Source of the DNA: a virus | Strand: one strand, 5' to 3' | Length of the DNA: 54,213 bases | Virus genome (UHGV): UHGV-0121358 | In this document: positions 22,539 through 28,068 of the stretch, in pieces | Layout: each line of letters starts with the position of its first letter | Numbering within the stretch: position 1 is the first letter of the stretch | Notes under the pieces: generated by a model | Databases searched by the model: none | What the model saw: only the letters and a program-made list of their open reading frames with translations | Told to the model about the DNA's origin: nothing | Position numbers and translations under genes: made by a program

Positions 22539-24053
22539 TTAAAATCCGCGCAGGCGCTTCGGTAACATGAGGCCCATCGCCTGTGGCTGGCTTAGTTCGG
22601 TAATGCCCCATACCATTGCGTCCATACGGTCAGGGGATTTTTTTGCGGTAGCTGGCACGTATTCCATCATTTGATTTTCCAGCGTGTACAGCTCACCAGT
22701 GTGGGCTACTCTGCCCTGTGCATACAGTGCAGATATTGGTTCAGCGCGGGCGAATTTGCCTTTGCTTGCGTGTACCTTAACAATGCGGCCTTTGAATCCG
22801 GCATTGCGTAGCGTGGCCTCTGCCATTTCACCGCCCTGGTTTGTTTCGATAACTATCGCGTCAGCTTCATGGATGTTGTAGGCGTTCATTGCTGCTTGCG
22901 CCCAGTCATTAGGTGACATGCGGCCTGAGTAGTCACCGTCTACTGAATACTGAGCATTCTTGCCACCACCATAAGCGGAACAGGCTACAATCCCTGTTTC
23001 GTCTGACTCATCAGATGATGTTGTCGCCGGGTCGATGGCTATCACCGTGCGAATTTTCTCCTGCGTTATCTGCATCATGTGCGCGGCGGTTATCATCGCT
23101 TCAGTCCACAATGCGCCCTCTTGATCGAACTTGCGCGGACACTGCATATATTGAGCTTCGAATGTTCGGCGATGTGATTTAAGAGTTGATTCATCTTTAT
23201 CACTATGCTTATGCAACCATAGCCAGCCATCCGGCAGGTTGTGAGGAACAGGAATAGCAAATTTGTTTTCCGGGTACAGATCCCAATAGTCAAGACTGTT
23301 GTCGATCTTCACTGGCAGGCAAAGGTGATGCCATTTCTCACCACTACCGCCACGTAACAGGTAGCCGGATAAATCATCGTAGTGGATACGCTGCATGATG
23401 ACGATCACTGGCGTTGTTTGCACAGCCAGGCGCGAAGAAAGCGTGTCGTTGTAATTGGTATTAACCTGCTTTCGCACCACATCAGAATAAGCGTCAGCTG
23501 GTTTCAGGGGGTCATCAATAATCATTGCGCCGTTAAACCCAGGTTCCATGTACCCGGCGCGGAACCCTGTCACCTGTCCAAGCGATGACGTCGCATACAC
23601 GCCGCCACCCTGAGTGGTCCACCACAGGTTTTTCGCGTTCGAATCGTTGCGCATTTGCATAGGCCACAATTCCTGATATTGCGGCATCGTGATTATGTTT
23701 CTTGTCTCTGAGGAATTAAGCAAGGCGAGTCCGTGTGAATACGATACATGCAGGAATCTGGTGCGGGGTTCTATTGCGAGGCAGCGGGCCATCATGTGAA
23801 TTGTGGCAATCATTGTTTTGCCATAGCCCGGTGGGATGTTGATTATCAACCTGGTGATTTCACCATTAATAACTCGTTGTAGCGTATCGGCAATTATTCT
23901 GTGATGACGCCCAACCAAAAAGTCCTTGCCAACCTGTTGCTTATAAAAGTAGGAACTAAAAAACAAAGGTGCTGATATGTCTTTGGGAGCACAACCTTTA
24001 ACACACAACCCCCTTAGAACCTCTCTGTCAATCTTTGTCGTCGCAGTCTCCAT
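22539..24053 (-). CDS. terL: terminase large subunit
   Basis: Track ORF, 504 aa; Walker A-like PPGYGKT near N-terminus; follows terS with 26-nt overlap. Confidence 0.9.
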   Translation of the reverse strand: METATTKIDREVLRGLCVKGCAPKDISAPLFFSSYFYKQQVGKDFLVGRHHRIIADTLQRVINGEITRLIINIPPGYGKTMIATIHMMARCLAIEPRTRFLHVSYSHGLALLNSSETRNIITMPQYQELWPMQMRNDSNAKNLWWTTQGGGVYATSSLGQVTGFRAGYMEPGFNGAMIIDDPLKPADAYSDVVRKQVNTNYNDTLSSRLAVQTTPVIVIMQRIHYDDLSGYLLRGGSGEKWHHLCLPVKIDNSLDYWDLYPENKFAIPVPHNLPDGWLWLHKHSDKDESTLKSHRRTFEAQYMQCPRKFDQEGALWTEAMITAAHMMQITQEKIRTVIAIDPATTSSDESDETGIVACSAYGGGKNAQYSVDGDYSGRMSPNDWAQAAMNAYNIHEADAIVIETNQGGEMAEATLRNAGFKGRIVKVHASKGKFARAEPISALYAQGRVAHTGELYTLENQMMEYVPATAKKSPDRMDAMVWGITELSQPQAMGLMLPKRLRGF

Positions 24054-24543
24054 GAGTATTGTACTCCTTATTCAGGTTATCGATTATCTCAAGGACAGTA
24101 GTCTGATTTACTTCTACCTGGACGGGTGCTTCTTCCTTGTTACCGACGATCTCCTGTGTGACGCGTTCGCCGTATTTACGCGGTTGCAGTTTTGCCAGTA
24201 ACCATTTACGAGTTTCAATCATCAGTTGATGGCGGCGGCATTGGTCTTTATCGGTGTTCTCCGCTGCGTCTGCTATGTCGATAATCTCATCAGCCAATAT
24301 CTCAAAACCGATCTCCTTCGCGCGCATGTACATGTCCGAGAACTCCGGCACGTCTCTGAACCATTTAAGGATTGTTGAACGCGCAGGCATATCAGGCATC
24401 TTCGAAATTTTGTTAATACTCTGACCGTCCGCCACCAGCTCACAGATTTCTAATGCCTTTTCTTCGGTATAACCATGCGGACGGCCCGTCTTTTTGGCTG
24501 CTGGCTTTTTATCGTCAGCATTTGCCTTTTTAGTGCGGGCCAT
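24028..24543 (-). CDS. terS: terminase small subunit
   Basis: Track ORF, 171 aa; basic N-terminus (MARTKKANADDKKPAAKKTGRPHGYTEE) with HTH-like segment; immediately upstream of terL. Confidence 0.7.
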   Translation of the reverse strand: MARTKKANADDKKPAAKKTGRPHGYTEEKALEICELVADGQSINKISKMPDMPARSTILKWFRDVPEFSDMYMRAKEIGFEILADEIIDIADAAENTDKDQCRRHQLMIETRKWLLAKLQPRKYGERVTQEIVGNKEEAPVQVEVNQTTVLEIIDNLNKEYNTHGDCDDKD

Positions 24544-24553
24544 AATTCACCTC

Positions 24554-24697
24554 TTAATCATCTTTACCAAATCTTAATTTAAATTCATTCATCATCTTTT
24601 CTACTTCCTGTTCGGAAAGATAGATGGTTTCATTATTTTCTGCTGAATCAAGTGCCTTTCTTATTTCATCTGCTATTTTTAGTTCTTCATCGTTCAT
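24554..24697 (-). CDS. small acidic protein (47 aa)
   Basis: Track ORF 24554..24838 truncated to ATG at 24697 with AAGAGGTGA SD (MNDEELKIADEIRKALDSAENNETIYLSEQEVEKMMNEFKLRFGKDD). Confidence 0.4.
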   Translation of the reverse strand: MNDEELKIADEIRKALDSAENNETIYLSEQEVEKMMNEFKLRFGKDD

Positions 24698-24708
24698 ATC
24701 GTCACCTC

Positions 24709-24792
24709 TTAATATTTGTTGATGATATATACGCAAGCTACAAAACTTGCGCAGTATGTTAAAACTTCCAACCAGTCGAACAGCTCTTTCAT
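24709..24792 (-). CDS. mini-ORF P9, 27-aa hydrophobic peptide (MKELFDWLEVLTYCASFVACVYIINKY)
   Basis: Own translation; AAAGG SD 7 nt upstream; stop TAA lies in the SD region of the next gene. Confidence 0.35.
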   Translation of the reverse strand: MKELFDWLEVLTYCASFVACVYIINKY

Positions 24793-24801
24793 TGTTTACC
24801 T

Positions 24802-24846
24802 TTATGCGAAGAAAACGATAACGACTAACAACGTGCATATAGCCAT
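24802..24846 (-). CDS. possible mini-ORF P10, 14 aa (MAICTLLVVIVFFA)
   Basis: Own translation; no clear SD; may be a decayed array member. Confidence 0.15.
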   Translation of the reverse strand: MAICTLLVVIVFFA

Positions 24847-24862
24847 AATTAAGAAGTCACTG

Positions 24863-24937
24863 TCAGACGTTGATAATCACCCCAATAATAATTAACGCAA
24901 CGGTACACACGATCAACATAATATCAATAGCATTCAT
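24863..24937 (-). CDS. mini-ORF P8, 24-aa hydrophobic peptide (MNAIDIMLIVCTVALIIIGVIINV)
   Basis: Own translation, verified codon by codon; AGGTGA SD 5 nt upstream. Confidence 0.45.
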   Translation of the reverse strand: MNAIDIMLIVCTVALIIIGVIINV

Positions 24938-24945
24938 GCGTTCAC

Positions 24946-25014
24946 CTATTGAGTTAACGCGATCATGGTAAAAACAATCGCAACGATCAGGAAAAAGAAA
25001 TCAAGCCATTTCAT
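24946..25014 (-). CDS. mini-ORF P7, 22-aa hydrophobic peptide (MKWLDFFFLIVAIVFTMIALTQ)
   Basis: Own translation; GGGAGATG SD; ATG overlaps stop of P6 (ATGA). Confidence 0.45.
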   Translation of the reverse strand: MKWLDFFFLIVAIVFTMIALTQ

Positions 25015-25091
25015 TTTTTCATCTCCCGGTATACGTCCACAGCAATAACCACAACTACAGCCACCAGCAATAGCATCTCATATGCGTTCAT
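25011..25091 (-). CDS. mini-ORF P6, 26-aa hydrophobic peptide (MNAYEMLLLVAVVVVIAVDVYREMKK); alternative start 25076
   Basis: Own translation; start overlaps 3' end of P5; AGGTAG SD-like. Confidence 0.4.
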   Translation of the reverse strand: MNAYEMLLLVAVVVVIAVDVYREMKK

Positions 25092-25185
25092 TGACACTAC
25101 CTATAACCAGACCAATGATGATAATTACGGCTACTACGCAAAACATCATCCCGCACATAATCGCCAGTAATTCGAATATATCCAT
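25078..25185 (-). CDS. mini-ORF P5, 35-aa hydrophobic peptide (MDIFELLAIMCGMMFCVVAVIIIIGLVIGSVNERI)
   Basis: Inner part of track ORF 25078..25290; ATG at 25185 with AGGTGA SD 5 nt upstream. Confidence 0.45.
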   Translation of the reverse strand: MDIFELLAIMCGMMFCVVAVIIIIGLVIGSVNERI

Positions 25186-25193
25186 GCCGTCAC

Positions 25194-25268
25194 CTATACA
25201 ACATTCTTCCACCAGAAACAGATAATGACGGCGACCAACGACCACCAGATGAGATCGTAAATATTCAT
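25194..25268 (-). CDS. mini-ORF P4, 24-aa hydrophobic peptide (MNIYDLIWWSLVAVIICFWWKNVV)
   Basis: Own translation; GAAGG SD-like 8 nt upstream. Confidence 0.4.
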   Translation of the reverse strand: MNIYDLIWWSLVAVIICFWWKNVV

Positions 25269-25279
25269 GGTGAATACCT

Positions 25280-25354
25280 TCAGCTTTCAATGAGTATCAT
25301 GATCGCCAGCCATACAGCGACGCAGACAGAAAGGATAATTAGCGGGTCAATCAT
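25280..25354 (-). CDS. mini-ORF P3, 24-aa hydrophobic peptide (MIDPLIILSVCVAVWLAIMILIES)
   Basis: Own translation; GGGGTGA SD 6 nt upstream, overlapping the stop of P2. Confidence 0.45.
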   Translation of the reverse strand: MIDPLIILSVCVAVWLAIMILIES

Positions 25355-25359
25355 ATTTT

Positions 25360-25464
25360 TCACCCCACCAAATACTTGATATATACGTTTATCAGCGCAA
25401 CTATAATAGAACCCACAAGAAACACAGAAACGCCGATTAATCCGGCGATGATGTAAGCATCCAT
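25360..25464 (-). CDS. mini-ORF P2, 34-aa hydrophobic peptide (MDAYIIAGLIGVSVFLVGSIIVALINVYIKYLVG)
   Basis: Own translation; weak SD, but ATG lies 4 nt after P1 stop (translational coupling). Confidence 0.4.
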   Translation of the reverse strand: MDAYIIAGLIGVSVFLVGSIIVALINVYIKYLVG

Positions 25465-25468
25465 AATA

Positions 25469-25537
25469 TCAATGTCCGTATATCAAGATCACAGCGGCAG
25501 CTATGCCAACAAATACGCCTAACAGAAAAGTAAACAT
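25469..25537 (-). CDS. mini-ORF P1, 22-aa hydrophobic peptide (MFTFLLGVFVGIAAAVILIYGH)
   Basis: Own translation; GAGAGGG SD; ATG 2 nt after the stop of the upstream 190-aa gene. Confidence 0.45.
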   Translation of the reverse strand: MFTFLLGVFVGIAAAVILIYGH

Positions 25538-25539
25538 AA

Positions 25540-26112
25540 TTACCCTCTCTTAAAGCTCATAACGCGCGGTACAAGCGCCTCTTTTGCTTTCGGCTTACGT
25601 TTGCCTTTCTTAGCTGGTTTTTTCTCTTCTTTCGGCTCCTCTGCCTGTTCTGCTGCATCAGTCGCCTGCTCTGCCTTTTCTAACGCCTGCTCAACGACTT
25701 CAGCCGCCTGCATCGCTGTGATCTGTGCTTCGTTTGATTCAGCCAGGATTGGGAAGAATGCGTCAAAGATACGTCCAACCATGTAAGCGTAAGTCTCATT
25801 CGCAGGATGAGTAGGATCAGTGGTCGCCACGACGCCTACATCACTTAAAACGTGGAATGTAGTGTGAGCGCATTCATGGACCAGCGTTCCAGTCTCATTG
25901 TTGAATACTGCGATCACGTAGAAATTACCGCCGGTCTCACCAGTACAGGTTAACGTCAGACCGCCAGCTAGTTCGAAATCAGGTTCGATTGGTATTCCGG
26001 CCTTTTCGCAAAATTCATAGAACATCTCGCGGGTCGGGCAAAAGAAAACGGTTGTATGCTCAAAGAGCGGGACTTTGAATTGAGGCAACTTAATGCCTTT
26101 AGCCTTAGCCAT
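25540..26112 (-). CDS. hypothetical protein with HExxH motif (HECAH) and Lys/Ala/Glu-rich C-terminal tail
   Basis: Track ORF, 190 aa; GGAG SD; motif LVHECAHTTFH; low-complexity basic tail. Confidence 0.6.
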   Translation of the reverse strand: MAKAKGIKLPQFKVPLFEHTTVFFCPTREMFYEFCEKAGIPIEPDFELAGGLTLTCTGETGGNFYVIAVFNNETGTLVHECAHTTFHVLSDVGVVATTDPTHPANETYAYMVGRIFDAFFPILAESNEAQITAMQAAEVVEQALEKAEQATDAAEQAEEPKEEKKPAKKGKRKPKAKEALVPRVMSFKRG

Positions 26113-26381
26113 CAGAATAATCTCCTGTCTGGTTTGCTTTTACTTCCTGTTTATACAGCGGCAGGAATGACATAAAACACTGAGAACGGCGCTTCATCAG
26201 TACCGTTTCCAGAATTTTATAAAATTGGTGAATGGCGCTTTCTTCTACCCAGGTAGCGCCCGACCTGTTAATGGGACTGTTGATCCGGTATTACGTGTTT
26301 TTGACTATTCCGCCGTCGCTCGCGGGAAGGATTGACCCGGTTATGGCTGGCTGGCAGAAACGGCGACACGTCCACGCGCTG

Positions 26382-26870
26382 TTATTCTTTGCGTAAGCAC
26401 TGCGTATTGATGTAGTCCTGCAATCCGGTGATCTTCGCGTCTTTTTCTTTTAATTGTTCTCTGAGGGATAGATAAGCCGATTCAGCGTCTGGAGTGAGTC
26501 TACAGGTGGCTCCATCAATGCGGCTGGCGGTTCCGGTATTGTCGAGCAATCGCACTGGTTCGGCGTTGACGTGCAACCGGATAGCGCCGCTATCAATACC
26601 AGTGCGCAGATCGGCAATGTCAGATCTGATAGCTTTAATCTCATCGTGATACCTCTTATCAAGTTTTGACAGTTCGGCGTTTCGCTCCTTCATCTGCTGA
26701 ATAGTGTTACTTGCCGTTTTCAGTGCGCCTTTCGTTACCGTGACTTCTTCCTGTAACCTTGCCGCCTCACCCTGGTAATAACATGTTACGGCGGTCAGTC
26801 CGGCAATAATGCAAACAACAGCGGCGATAATTAACGCCTTCACCTTGTCCACGTTTCCCCCCATTCGCAA
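26382..26870 (-). CDS. Rz: i-spanin Rz
   Basis: Track ORF; N-terminal TM segment then coiled-coil; follows endolysin; contains embedded Rz1 frame. Confidence 0.75.
26450..26644 (-). CDS. Rz1: o-spanin Rz1 (embedded in Rz, alternate frame)
   Basis: Track ORF 26450..26662; from ATG at 26644 gives [24 protein letters not shown]... with lipobox LSGC and Pro-rich mature region. Confidence 0.65.
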   Translation of the reverse strand: MRLKLSDLTLPICALVLIAALSGCTSTPNQCDCSTIPEPPAALMEPPVDSLQTLNRLIYPSENN

Positions 26871-27331
26871 ACGGCATATTCAACCTCGCGGCGGTTTACC
26901 AGGCCTTGCCACTTCTTACCGCCAGCGTATACCCAGCGTTTAAGCTGTGCGCACGCTTCTGATTTCTTGCCGTCATTGAGTAGTTTTAGTAAGGTTGATG
27001 TTTTGAAGTTGGTAGCGCCTACGTTATAGGCGAAGGAATAAAGTGCAGCGCGGGTAAAATCTGATATTTCGACTTTGATATATGGGTCAATCGCTTTTGC
27101 GGTCTTGTGTAGATCTTTATTTAACAAAGCATCGCATTCTGATTGCGTGTAAGTCTTACCAAGCATGATGTCTTTTCCGACGTGTCCATAACATATCGTG
27201 TAAACACCGATGACATCTCTGTACGGCTTATACTCAACGCCTTCAAGATCTTTTATCATCATCCCCGCAATAGCGATCGCCCCACCAGCCGCCGCCGCAA
27301 TAATCTTATTTTTCAGCGATTGGCTAATCAT
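26840..27331 (-). CDS. SAR endolysin (phage-21 R21-like lysozyme)
   Basis: Track ORF 26840..27412; ATG at 27331. N-terminal signal-anchor ([13 protein letters not shown]) then [21 protein letters not shown]...[11 protein letters not shown]...LLNKDL...NPYIKV...[14 protein letters not shown] closely matches my recollection of phage 21 R21. Confidence 0.85.
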
Positions 27332-27332
27332 G

Positions 27333-27533
27333 TTACTTATTCCCCATTCGCGCGTCGTGTTCCTCTTGCGCTCGCTTGTTCTCCTGTGATTTGAAGTAAT
27401 AATTAACGGCAAATGTGCCTACGGTTGATAAGATACCCACAAAGACGGCAATATCATTGATGGTTATCGCGCCGAAAAAAGCAGTTACGGCCCCAGTCAC
27501 ATACGCACATGCCTCCCGTATTCTGTCGAACAT
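27333..27533 (-). CDS. holin (pinholin-like, two TM segments)
   Basis: Track ORF 27333..27578; ATG at 27533 with GGAGGT SD; 66 aa, two hydrophobic segments and charged C-terminus, paired with a SAR endolysin. Confidence 0.75.
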
Positions 27534-27550
27534 AGATTTACCTCCAACAA

Positions 27551-27575
27551 AGCAAAAACCCGGCGCGTGGCCGGG
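27551..27575 (-). terminator. rho-independent terminator immediately upstream of holin (tR'-like)
   Basis: Stem CCCGGC / GCCGGG with loop GCGTG, followed on the minus strand by TTTTTGCTTTG. Confidence 0.65.
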
Positions 27576-27638
27576 CAATTACAATTTCGCATTGTTAGGA
27601 AATATTTTAATCTATTTGTTTTTTATGCGCGATTATGG

Positions 27639-27836
27639 TTACAAATCACCAACCTTGCGCCAGTATCTATGATTAACCATCGTGATAACTTCTTTCGCTG
27701 TCATAGGTAAAAATGGCTCATGCCACCGATCAAGACTACCGAGGCGCATCAAAACGTGCTCACCTTCGAGGCGGTAATAAGCTCGCGTAGCCAATGACTG
27801 ATAAACGCCATCATATTCATGGTCGCTATTTCCCAT
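27639..27836 (-). CDS. hypothetical protein
   Basis: Track ORF; co-oriented with late operon; no recognised motif. Confidence 0.4.
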   Translation of the reverse strand: MGNSDHEYDGVYQSLATRAYYRLEGEHVLMRLGSLDRWHEPFLPMTAKEVITMVNHRYWRKVGDL

Positions 27837-28068
27837 TTTTACGCTCCTTAATGGCTCGCCTGATTTGCTCTGCCGTAGCGTCGAAGAAAGCGATAAACAC
27901 AGTCACAGGCCAAAAAGGAATCTCAAGTCCACCATGTTCGGCACCGCTAAACTTAATAAAACATGACATCAGGATCGCGCCAGCGATATAAAGCAAAACA
28001 GTCACAGCAATAAGGCATTCAATCATAATCATCGTCCTCGTCGTCATGTTCAGCCATGAAATCATCAA
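27826..28068 (-). CDS. hypothetical membrane protein
   Basis: Track ORF; two hydrophobic segments. Confidence 0.4.
   Translation of the reverse strand: MMISWLNMTTRTMIMIECLIAVTVLLYIAGAILMSCFIKFSGAEHGGLEIPFWPVTVFIAFFDATAEQIRRAIKERKNGK

Follow-up and report, generated by a model that had tools for sequence, protein, structure and literature searches.

Very short hydrophobic membrane proteins are known from several phage and bacterial systems. Filamentous-phage genes VII and IX encode minor coat proteins of 33 and 32 aa that are components of the virion, and, as substrates, the Pf3 coat and M13 procoat depend on YidC and the pmf. Accessory lysis regulators such as P2 LysA, P1 LydB, T4 RI, and Mu releasin lie beside lysis cassettes, the usual agents of injection-blocking exclusion are small inner-membrane proteins (T4 Imm, P22 SieA), and type I toxins include Ibs (18–19 aa) and ShoB (26 aa). 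The BPV E5 oncoprotein and artificial 'traptamers' are minimal transmembrane (TM) helices that bind target TM domains laterally and sequence-specifically. Among bacterial proteins, AcrZ, KdpF, MgrB, and MgtS are no longer than 50 aa, have a single predicted TM, are missed by annotation, evolve under purifying selection, and are expected to bind larger membrane proteins; intergenic hydrophobic smORFs have been described in Enterobacteriaceae (PMC11188072), and small membrane proteins have been reviewed (PMC12648545). The phage locus described here shares the features by which such smORF proteins are recognized (no more than 50 codons, a start with a Shine-Dalgarno [SD] motif, one bilayer-length hydrophobic segment, and purifying selection), and its peptides presumably also bind larger membrane proteins. 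However, the bacterial proteins are solitary or partners within one operon, whereas the phage genes are chained, coupled, and combinatorial in content, and we found no sequence relationship between the two in Pfam or NCBIfam.

The array lies at positions 25537–24709 on the minus strand of the window (the whole 54,213-nt stretch analyzed, virus genome UHGV-0121358), and we confirm that it consists of real genes, almost wholly unannotated. Upstream is a gene for a 190-aa protein with an HExxH motif (HECAH; 25540..26112, minus strand; phrog_1365; pN/pS 0.08). Nine mini-ORFs of 22–35 codons have ATG starts, and when we checked all nine, their coordinates and translations were as given in the initial annotation. 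In order along the minus strand, and with the numbers of intact occurrences among related phages, these are A (25469..25537; 22 aa, MFTFLLGVFVGIAAAVILIYGH; intact 19/19; pN/pS 0.30), B (25360..25464; 34 aa, MDAYIIAGLIGVSVFLVGSIIVALINVYIKYLVG; canonical length in 40/43, the other three being C-terminal variants or a fusion; pN/pS 0.26), C (25280..25354; 24 aa, MIDPLIILSVCVAVWLAIMILIES; intact 47/47; pN/pS 0.30), D (25194..25268; 24 aa, MNIYDLIWWSLVAVIICFWWKNVV; intact 40/42; pN/pS 0.46), E (25078..25185; 35 aa, MDIFELLAIMCGMMFCVVAVIIIIGLVIGSVNERI; intact 24/25; pN/pS 0.12), F (25011..25091; 26 aa, MNAYEMLLLVAVVVVIAVDVYREMKK; intact 48/48; pN/pS 0.25), H (24946..25014; 22 aa, MKWLDFFFLIVAIVFTMIALTQ; intact 46/46; pN/pS 0.13), I (24863..24937; 24 aa, MNAIDIMLIVCTVALIIIGVIINV; I and I2 together intact 34/34; pN/pS 0.18–0.27), and L (24709..24792; 27 aa, MKELFDWLEVLTYCASFVACVYIINKY; intact 45/45; pN/pS 0.09, the lowest of the families). 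A possible tenth ORF of 14 codons had been noted at 24846–24802; it is present, starting at an internal ATG at 24846 and encoding MAICTLLVVIVFFA, but it is what remains of J (24802..24870, minus strand), a conserved family of 22 codons whose start has been lost in this lineage, with ACG at 24870–24868 instead of ATG. Elsewhere, family J is a 22-aa ORF (MSDSDFLIIAISSLLVVIVFFA) intact in 31 of 34 occurrences. Beyond L lies N (24554..24697, minus strand), which encodes a 47-aa acidic, soluble small protein and no membrane peptide; it is an optional 155-nt cassette, present in 8 of 50 arrays and bounded exactly by duplicated T(A/G)AGAGGTGA junctions. The start of terS, an Sf6-type small terminase gene (24028..24543, minus strand; PF20901 at 1.5e-37; phrog_1482; pN/pS 0.18), is 10 nt past the N stop, with GAGGTGA between them.

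Two considerations favor reading the region as chance ORFs in a T-rich spacer, or as a functional element of the DNA itself, for instance a packaging site: the sense strand is 37% T, which favors hydrophobic codons, and the array is just upstream of terS, the position of the cos site in lambda. However, the array contains eight TM-like ATG mini-ORFs, seven of them with an SD, against means of 0.91 and 0.16 (maxima of five and three) in 2000 dinucleotide shuffles; its antisense strand has none, and elsewhere in the window the median is zero per 829 nt. Across 50 distinct arrays, 458 of 467 family occurrences (98%) are intact at a pS of about 0.28, with no more than a single frameshift and two losses of the start codon, independent of each other, among the lesions; this census uses canonical lengths, and queries taken from the first ATG were N-terminally over-extended. 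Decay of the frames in homologous regions and a composition-matched null had been proposed as ways in which the coding interpretation could fail, and on both counts it holds. In frame, pN/pS is 0.25, compared with 1.04 and 1.40 off-frame and 0.18 for terS in the same loci, which are phylogenetically non-independent; variable sites are distributed 130/81/231 by codon position, an excess at third positions (chi-square p = 6e-18). Purifying selection on the mini-ORFs is frame-specific, with per-family pN/pS values of 0.09–0.46, and starts, stops, and SDs are conserved. The shuffle null, the intactness, and the frame-specific selection refute the non-genic explanation, which we regard as barely credible.

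The comparison set of 58 related loci, representing the 50 distinct arrays, derives from mEpimmI coliphages and Escherichia coli prophages. About 20 peptide families occur in a fixed order, with 3–13 per phage; we assigned families by prototype, and single-linkage clustering at 55% identity fused most of them because of their low-complexity hydrophobicity. C is present in 47 of 50 arrays and L or L2 in every array examined, and together with F and H they form a near-universal core, the remaining families being optional. Content varies combinatorially between otherwise close phages, and mEp021, which plates on K-12, has about five array ORFs while other phages keep up to 13. Gain and loss of cassettes take place at the repeated stop+SD junctions; the array evolves by the turnover of whole cassettes through recombination there, and coupling is preserved. 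Shared N-terminal motifs had suggested paralogous duplication, and this is upheld for the subsets G-K-H, D-D2, and Dx-F-I-I2, but does not extend to all families. Among phage records, only those of seven mEpimmI phages bear the array, searches for it on plasmids gave no matches, and codon-degenerate patterns of F and C searched outside the group matched only already known IMG/VR contigs, so far as these searches reach placing the array solely in this E. coli phage group. The phage carrying the window array is a member of the mEpimmI group, siphoviruses termed 'Nus-dependent non-lambdoid' by their describers (PMC11893012), and the lambdoid label first given to it needs a minor correction.

Such turnover could reflect an anti-defense or host-takeover function, in which the helices would each block a separate protein of the host inner membrane, such as an abortive-infection TM effector that would fire when terminase and portal appear, with an arms race driving the exchange of cassettes. 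The combinatorial content (50 distinct arrays in 58 loci), the many unrelated families within one array, their nature as lineage-restricted orphans without a known family, and the position directly upstream of terS/terL, with which the array is predicted to be co-expressed, all fit this idea. Yet the near-universal and strongly conserved C, F, H, and L families (pN/pS 0.09 for L) make a core function likelier than arms-race cargo, and there is no signal of positive selection, pN/pS being below 0.5 in every family. The peptides also have no homology to known anti-defense proteins, and PADLOC and other libraries are silent, although anti-defense peptides are not listed there. We consider this explanation doubtful.

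The first ORF of the array starts 2 nt past the HExxH stop in every array, whatever its family, and the same spacing reported for A in the window is correct. Neighboring ORFs had been described as joined by ATGA overlaps or gaps of 2–4 nt; the near-abutting or overlapping arrangement stands, but F→H is the sole true ATGA overlap in the window array, E→F overlap by 14 nt and I→J by 8 nt, and the remaining gaps are 2–11 nt. Of 443 junctions in the comparison set, 94% are within 20 nt or overlapping (28% overlap), and 405 (91%) have an SD-like motif, in keeping with the claim that SDs are nearly universal, except that in the window B has only a weak SD (GGA) and the J remnant lacks one. Typically, the upstream stop lies inside or abuts the next SD (TAGGTGA, TAAGAGGTGA, ATGA overlaps). 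This geometry supports translational coupling of the array ORFs, in a chain that is unbroken from the HExxH gene through the array to terS at its downstream end; these two genes, and not the lysis genes, are the coupling partners. We envisage that the ORFs would be read successively from one mRNA, from the HExxH gene into terS/terL, and because a stop is in or next to the following SD at nearly every junction, ribosomes would be handed from ORF to ORF along the chain.

A purely cis-acting role would make the peptides by-products: the mini-ORFs would merely keep ribosomes on the mRNA from the HExxH gene to terS, protecting it from Rho and RNases and delivering ribosomes to terS. An unbroken chain with an invariant first spacing, whose coupling survives cassette loss, is what such a relay would look like. 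However, a relay needs only frames and SDs, yet the amino acid sequences are conserved to a degree like that of terS, and an acidic-N/TM/basic-C design is kept in all families. Moreover, mEp021 manages with few ORFs where others keep 13, and P22-like phages, which have an HExxH homologue at the equivalent position without the array, span the HExxH-to-terS interval with an ordinary gene. We think it quite unlikely that the array is only a relay.

As had been expected, the array is largely invisible to standard annotation, and it is among the clearest comparative-genomic cases of such a gene block. PGAP calls no genes across this stretch, and in phage records based on PHANOTATE under half of the array ORFs are called, often off-frame, leaving the region partly annotated in the wrong frame. 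Eight of the 10 window peptides are missing from a collection of 15 billion proteins; only B, the sole hydrophobic array member found in protein databases, and the soluble N are present. Searches of Pfam, PHROG, NCBIfam, and PADLOC gave no family match at threshold, with no array peptide matching holin families (PHROG, Pfam) or known exclusion proteins (PHROG, Pfam, PADLOC), and our literature search found no paper describing the array or containing its peptide strings.

A matches an NCBIfam model of a type I toxin below threshold (11.6 bits, with a cut-off of 60; E = 0.29), which raises the question of whether the ORFs are toxin-antitoxin-like loci, with hydrophobic toxins in the style of Ibs, ShoB, or Ldr paired with antisense RNAs. 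Those toxins are likewise very short, extremely hydrophobic, and sometimes encoded in tandem repeated loci, and the array peptides resemble Ibs and ShoB in size and composition. Type I toxins, however, belong to known families and are independent units with an antisense RNA and promoter, and we found none of these for the array: plus-strand (antisense) promoter-like sites number three against 7.4 expected, no Pfam or NCBIfam toxin family is matched at threshold, and Rfam yields no family over the array, only a sub-threshold CRISPR-DR10 noise match within terS. There is also no stand-alone transcription unit, since packing within 20 nt together with coupling leaves no room for the promoter, 5′ UTR, and antisense unit that each such locus would need of its own. 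The promoter, Rfam, family, and packing results largely refute a type I toxin-antitoxin system, which is very improbable.

The peptides were initially described as a short polar N-terminus followed by one hydrophobic stretch, and this description is accurate. The layout is an acidic N-flank of 4–5 residues, then a single hydrophobic core, then a C-flank of 0–8 residues that is neutral or basic; uncharged cores are 13–30 residues long, and Kyte-Doolittle maxima over a 13-residue window are 2.3–3.8. By these properties, the peptides fit single-pass TM helices, and under the positive-inside rule the flanks predict an N-out/C-in orientation in the inner membrane. The charge layout is similar to that of the Pf3 coat and M13 procoat, and filamentous VII/IX together with the Pf3 coat provide a broader parallel: tandem, overlapping, coupled genes for hydrophobic proteins of about 30 aa, which are N-out with acidic N-tails and follow a YidC/pmf-type route. 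However, those are two genes of membrane-assembling virions (Inoviridae), whereas the array, with ten or more cassettes, is in a tailed siphovirus and has no homology to them. Holins and antiholins are also different, being typically at least 60 aa with one or more TMDs and a charged cytoplasmic C-terminal domain, and in 88 comparisons the array peptides are unlike the TM segments of the phage's own holin, SAR, Rz, and Rz1 (maximum Z = 3.8). Variable positions have no significant one-sided helical pattern of the kind that a specific interaction face would leave; of 13 tests, J alone gave p = 0.03.

Having hardly any mass outside the membrane, the peptides could act only within the bilayer, either through lateral helix-helix binding to partner TM segments or by perturbing the membrane. 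By analogy with BPV E5 and traptamers, which are eukaryotic-viral or synthetic, the array could be a natural recombining library of minimal TM helices ('natural traptamers'), each cassette directed against a different host or competitor TM domain, with the junctions as a shuffling system that would allow cassettes to be swapped without loss of expression. Targets would include defense effectors, DNA-entry channels, and the holin. We find this doubtful; if true, it would constitute an unrecognized mode of phage-host conflict borne by genes below annotation cut-offs.

We favor, as the probable explanation, an array of coding TM micro-gene cassettes that act late in the inner membrane, perhaps tuning lysis. 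The phage carries terS and terL, portal, and tail genes, and a lysis cassette with a two-TMD holin, a SAR-type endolysin, and Rz/Rz1. As read from the sequence, the endolysin N-terminus is SAR-like and the 66-aa holin is without a dual start; a homologous locus has Pfam matches to a holin (Phage_holin_2_3) and a lysozyme. Because the array is positioned between the lysis cassette and the packaging genes, its peptides are probably made late in infection. Our best single guess, which we hold only tentatively, is that they tune a membrane-potential-dependent holin/SAR-endolysin lysis clock, and a lysis-timing function is the most likely one by analogy with accessory lysis regulators. LysA, LydB, RI, and releasin are similarly small membrane proteins made with or beside holin and endolysin, and they shift lysis timing. 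A further precedent is outlined for hokW, a small hydrophobic prophage peptide that aids Sp5 phage release (PMC8621323). These regulators differ in being one or two proteins of about 50–140 aa with extramembrane domains, whereas the array encodes bare helices that are numerous, optional, and without homology to them. Several observations speak against lysis tuning: the chain couples to the HExxH gene and terS while the lysis genes, including the real holin upstream, are set apart from the array by the HExxH gene and a gap of about 270 nt toward Rz; a copy number of 3–13 with free presence and absence is unusual for a timing function; and there is the dissimilarity to the phage's own lysis TM segments. 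Terminators are annotated within the Rz-side gap in mEp021 and mEp013. The initial annotation's caution that membrane-active roles are conjectural was, in our judgment, right.

Another alternative is superinfection exclusion, in which the peptides would block DNA entry of other phages (at ManYZ- or PtsG-type TM surfaces) or lower pmf. Small inner-membrane proteins are typical of injection blocking, as with T4 Imm and P22 SieA, and variable cassettes would suit varied competitors. DicB, a small prophage protein described as blocking inner-membrane receptor proteins, offers a precedent (PMC6832061). However, the prophage itself normally expresses its exclusion genes, and a crude consensus scan predicted no sigma-70-like promoters on the coding strand across 23900–27900; the ORFs are instead coupled into the lysis-packaging gene block, and the known exclusion functions of the mEpimmI group are others, an Lpp lipoprotein and the repressor (PMC11893012). 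We consider exclusion unlikely. Were the peptides to modulate lysis, defense, or exclusion via TM-TM contacts, the array, with its unusual architecture of up to 13 bare TM helices linked by stop-embedded SDs and shuffled at the same junctions, would offer a compact, genetically tractable system for helix-target recognition, and phage accessory repertoires would be underestimated.

One homologue of the HExxH protein is named 'PolyVal metallopeptidase superfamily domain'. The AlphaFold2 model of the HExxH protein is unusable (mean pLDDT 47); the protein has no significant match among PDB sequences and no relatives in 100,044 species-representative genomes. We also considered Ipe, the haemolysis-inducing protein of mEp021, as an array member and rejected it, its 77-aa product being outside the array. 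The mEpimmI coliphage group is reported to be common in the human gut (PMC11893012).

On its minus strand, the window carries Rz/Rz1 (26870-26382), a gap of ~270 nt (26381-26113), a gene coding for a 190-aa HExxH protein (26112-25540), an array of mini-ORFs (25537-24709), a gene (N) for a soluble 47-aa acidic protein (24697-24554), terS (24543-24028), and terL (24053-22539). The ORFs we find in the array agree with the nine originally proposed, all on the minus strand: A (25537-25469, 22 aa, MFTFLLGVFVGIAAAVILIYGH), B (25464-25360, 34 aa, MDAYIIAGLIGVSVFLVGSIIVALINVYIKYLVG), C (25354-25280, 24 aa, MIDPLIILSVCVAVWLAIMILIES), D (25268-25194, 24 aa, MNIYDLIWWSLVAVIICFWWKNVV), E (25185-25078, 35 aa, MDIFELLAIMCGMMFCVVAVIIIIGLVIGSVNERI), F (25091-25011, 26 aa, MNAYEMLLLVAVVVVIAVDVYREMKK), H (25014-24946, 22 aa, MKWLDFFFLIVAIVFTMIALTQ), I (24937-24863, 24 aa, MNAIDIMLIVCTVALIIIGVIINV), and L (24792-24709, 27 aa, MKELFDWLEVLTYCASFVACVYIINKY). 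Neighbouring ORFs in the window overlap by as much as 14 nt or lie up to 11 nt apart, and at most junctions the next Shine-Dalgarno (SD) sequence contains or adjoins the upstream stop codon, as in gtaTAGgtgacggcATG, caaTAGgtgaacgcATG, attTAAgaggtgacgatATG, and aaaaaATGA. A 94-aa ORF (24838-24554, minus strand) is a chimera in which the J-family remnant and L, both read off-frame, are joined to the genuine 47-aa N gene; gene callers may prefer it, but pN/pS is 0.09 in the L frame, and relatives have N annotated on its own.

The array substantially exceeds the composition-matched null named in the initial annotation. We counted ATG-initiated ORFs 20-40 codons long in which a 13-residue Kyte-Doolittle window scores ≥2.0. 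There are eight such transmembrane (TM)-like mini-ORFs in the 829-nt region, compared with a mean of 0.91 and a maximum of 5 in 2000 dinucleotide-preserving shuffles; if an SD is also required there are seven (shuffle mean 0.16, maximum 3). The antisense strand of the region has none by the same criteria, and no other 829-nt stretch of the window is comparable (median 0). The suspicion that the array is unannotated was also well founded: PGAP leaves the interval blank (for example, as an 841-nt gap in NZ_CP030768), and the PHANOTATE-based phage records, in which some tiny 'hypothetical proteins' are called, include fewer than half of the conserved ORFs, and several of their CDS are either off-frame or too long, beginning at a TTG or GTG. 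None of the four phage records checked has a correctly framed call for C, F, H, or L. Of the ten window peptides, a 15-billion-protein collection contains B and N only.

DNA matches are found in seven phage records (mEp021, mEp010, mEp013, mEp044, mEp515, mEp554, and MagusPhagus; the mEpimmI group) and ~35 E. coli prophages. The array had initially been viewed in a lambdoid context, but the mEpimmI group is described as Nus-dependent and non-lambdoid (PMC11893012). Our comparison drew on 12 loci with annotation, 47 from IMG/VR for which the HExxH protein served as anchor, and a single ENA contig of greater divergence; the HExxH-to-terS interval is recognisable in 58 of these (318-1154 nt), giving 50 distinct intervals. 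There are ~20 peptide families, with 3 to 13 per phage, in a single conserved order: A/A2/A3/A4/P, B, (Dx), C, D/D2, (Q), E, F, G, H, I/I2, J, K, M, L/L2, (N). Near-universal families are L (or L2; 50/50 arrays), F (48/50), C (47/50), H (46/50), and B (43/50). The peptides are almost unchanged in one locus (L060) whose HExxH protein is only 59% identical, and in another (L019) with a different terS type. Downstream of the array, at least three terS/terL types occur: in the window, a 171-aa terS that overlaps a 504-aa terL (24053-24028); at other loci, a 161-aa terS with a 492-aa terL; and in L019, a 208-aa terS. The region is thus a mosaic.

Conservation of the frames in relatives, a check that had been proposed earlier, holds in 458 of 467 family occurrences, as judged by a blastn-based census with canonical-length queries. 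The exceptions are a single frameshift (D in L027), loss of the D start in L051, loss of the J start (ATG to ACG) in three loci of the window's lineage (the window, NZ_CP030768, and L016), B copies that differ in C-terminal length, one fusion of B to C in frame, and a read-through of E. The fusion (L034) yields a 60-aa two-helix product and loss of the E stop in L017 extends that peptide to 55 aa, which shows that larger membrane proteins can arise by the merging of mini-ORFs. Given the J start loss, the 14-codon ORF initially put forward as a possible tenth member is instead a remnant of family J (24870-24802, minus strand), and reflects either recent pseudogenisation or a change to a 14-aa product that starts at an internal ATG (24846).

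Selection acts on the encoded peptides. The pooled in-frame pN/pS is 0.25 (0.09-0.46 by family), whereas the same DNA gives 1.04 and 1.40 in the +1 and +2 frames, and although the sequences compared in pairs lack phylogenetic independence and intact copies alone were aligned, neither of these can yield a frame-specific four- to five-fold contrast. At the same loci, pN/pS is 0.18 for terS and 0.08 for the HExxH N-domain. Variable sites fall 130/81/231 at codon positions 1/2/3 (chi-square p = 6e-18). That the ORFs are non-coding or chance occurrences is thus exceedingly improbable, and this amino-acid-level constraint also disfavours a pure translational relay, in which the act of translation would be what matters; we consider that quite unlikely.

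Junction geometry fits the proposed translational coupling throughout the set. Among 443 junctions, 94% have a gap of ≤20 nt, overlaps make up 28%, and an SD-like motif lies 4-18 nt upstream in 91%; most of the larger gaps contain an ORF of a family outside those assigned. The first ORF always starts 2 nt past the HExxH stop, whatever its family. The window and NZ_CP030768 (99.8% identical) differ by a 155-nt indel comprising precisely N and a single junction, flanked by two copies of T(A/G)AGAGGTGA, and the stop-plus-SD junctions are therefore recombination points for cassette gain and loss. Paralogous duplication, also suggested initially, is supported for seven pairs (Dx-F, Z = 9.7; G-K, 8.6; I-I2, 7.8; D-D2, 7.6; G-H, 5.8; H-K, 5.4; F-I, 5.4; baseline median 1.1) and does not extend demonstrably to all families.

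A consensus scan of 23900-27900 predicts no sigma-70-like promoter on the coding strand, and an Rfam search of the region gave no family match. From its position in a long co-directional block, we infer that the array is expressed late. Antisense promoter-like sites are fewer than expected (3 versus 7.4 in shuffles), and since such sites are rarer than chance, a 10/12 sigma-70 match within the array (TTGACA, 17 nt, AATGAT; plus strand, 25119-25091) is probably without meaning. In mEp021 and mEp013, the stretch that separates Rz from the HExxH gene has annotated terminators. This Rz-HExxH gap has a candidate 30-aa ORF in the window (26197-26105, minus strand) and PHANOTATE-called candidates of 30-42 aa in relatives.

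The ORFs are conserved, tightly coupled, and code for single hydrophobic helices; our confidence in the genes is high, and in any function low. The peptides are dominated by I, V, L, A, M, and F, with an N-flank of 4-5 residues that has a net charge of -1 to -2 in nearly all families (D/E being commonest at position 5), an uncharged core of 13-30 residues, and a C-flank of net charge 0 to +3.8. By the positive-inside rule, this acidic-to-basic layout predicts an N-out/C-in topology and seems to resemble that of Pf3 coat and M13 procoat, two substrates that depend on YidC and the pmf. We propose that the peptides would be translated serially from a transcript running on into terS and terL, and would insert in the inner membrane in that orientation; having almost no soluble part, they could act only within the bilayer.

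The adjacent lysis genes (~27610-26840, minus strand) code for a 66-aa two-TMD holin without a dual-start Met and an endolysin with a Gly/Ala-rich, SAR-like N-terminus, which suggests a pinholin/SAR-type system without a built-in antiholin. As phage 21-type lysis is triggered by membrane depolarisation, tuning of the lysis clock is our tentative choice as the single most likely output of the array. Against it, the array has its coupling with the HExxH gene and terS and not with lysis genes, its copy number varies widely, the peptides are unlike the phage's own lysis-protein TM segments, and a one-sided conservation pattern is not detectable. Peptides confined to the bilayer might instead bind TM segments in anti-defence or host takeover, a weaker possibility, or act in superinfection exclusion, which we regard as unlikely; type I toxin-like activity is very doubtful.

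No peptide matches PHROGs, Pfam, NCBIfam, or PADLOC at threshold. Array DNA is confined to the seven mEpimmI phages among phage records and is absent from the plasmids searched, and codon-degenerate F and C patterns match only IMG/VR contigs already known through the HExxH anchor. P22-like Salmonella phages have a 47%-identical HExxH homologue (ST64T, L105 2501-2890; ST104, L106) in the same position, between the lysis genes and terS, but what comes next is an ordinary 134-aa gene and no array. From this distribution, the array is an insertion specific to the mEpimmI lineage of E. coli phages. PMC11893012 makes no mention of small ORFs or TM peptides for this region, and the peptide sequences appear in no paper of the literature searched. 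Phage smORFs and small membrane proteins with a single pass have been described before (PMC11188072, PMC12648545), but in the literature searched we found no tailed phage with an array like this one, in which up to 13 bare-TM micro-genes are translationally coupled and shuffled as cassettes.

The HExxH protein belongs to phrog_1365 (no assigned function), with one homologue labelled 'PolyVal metallopeptidase superfamily domain', and has no relative in 100,044 species-representative genomes; an AlphaFold2 model was too poor (pLDDT 47) and was discarded. A 32%-identical paralogue adjoins sieA in P22 (13861-14193; hkcC in HK620). In mEp013 an inserted HNH endonuclease gene separates the HExxH gene from the array (L007 1733-2218), and in L060 one lies between the endolysin and Rz genes (2252-2773); these differing points suggest mobile homing-type insertions.
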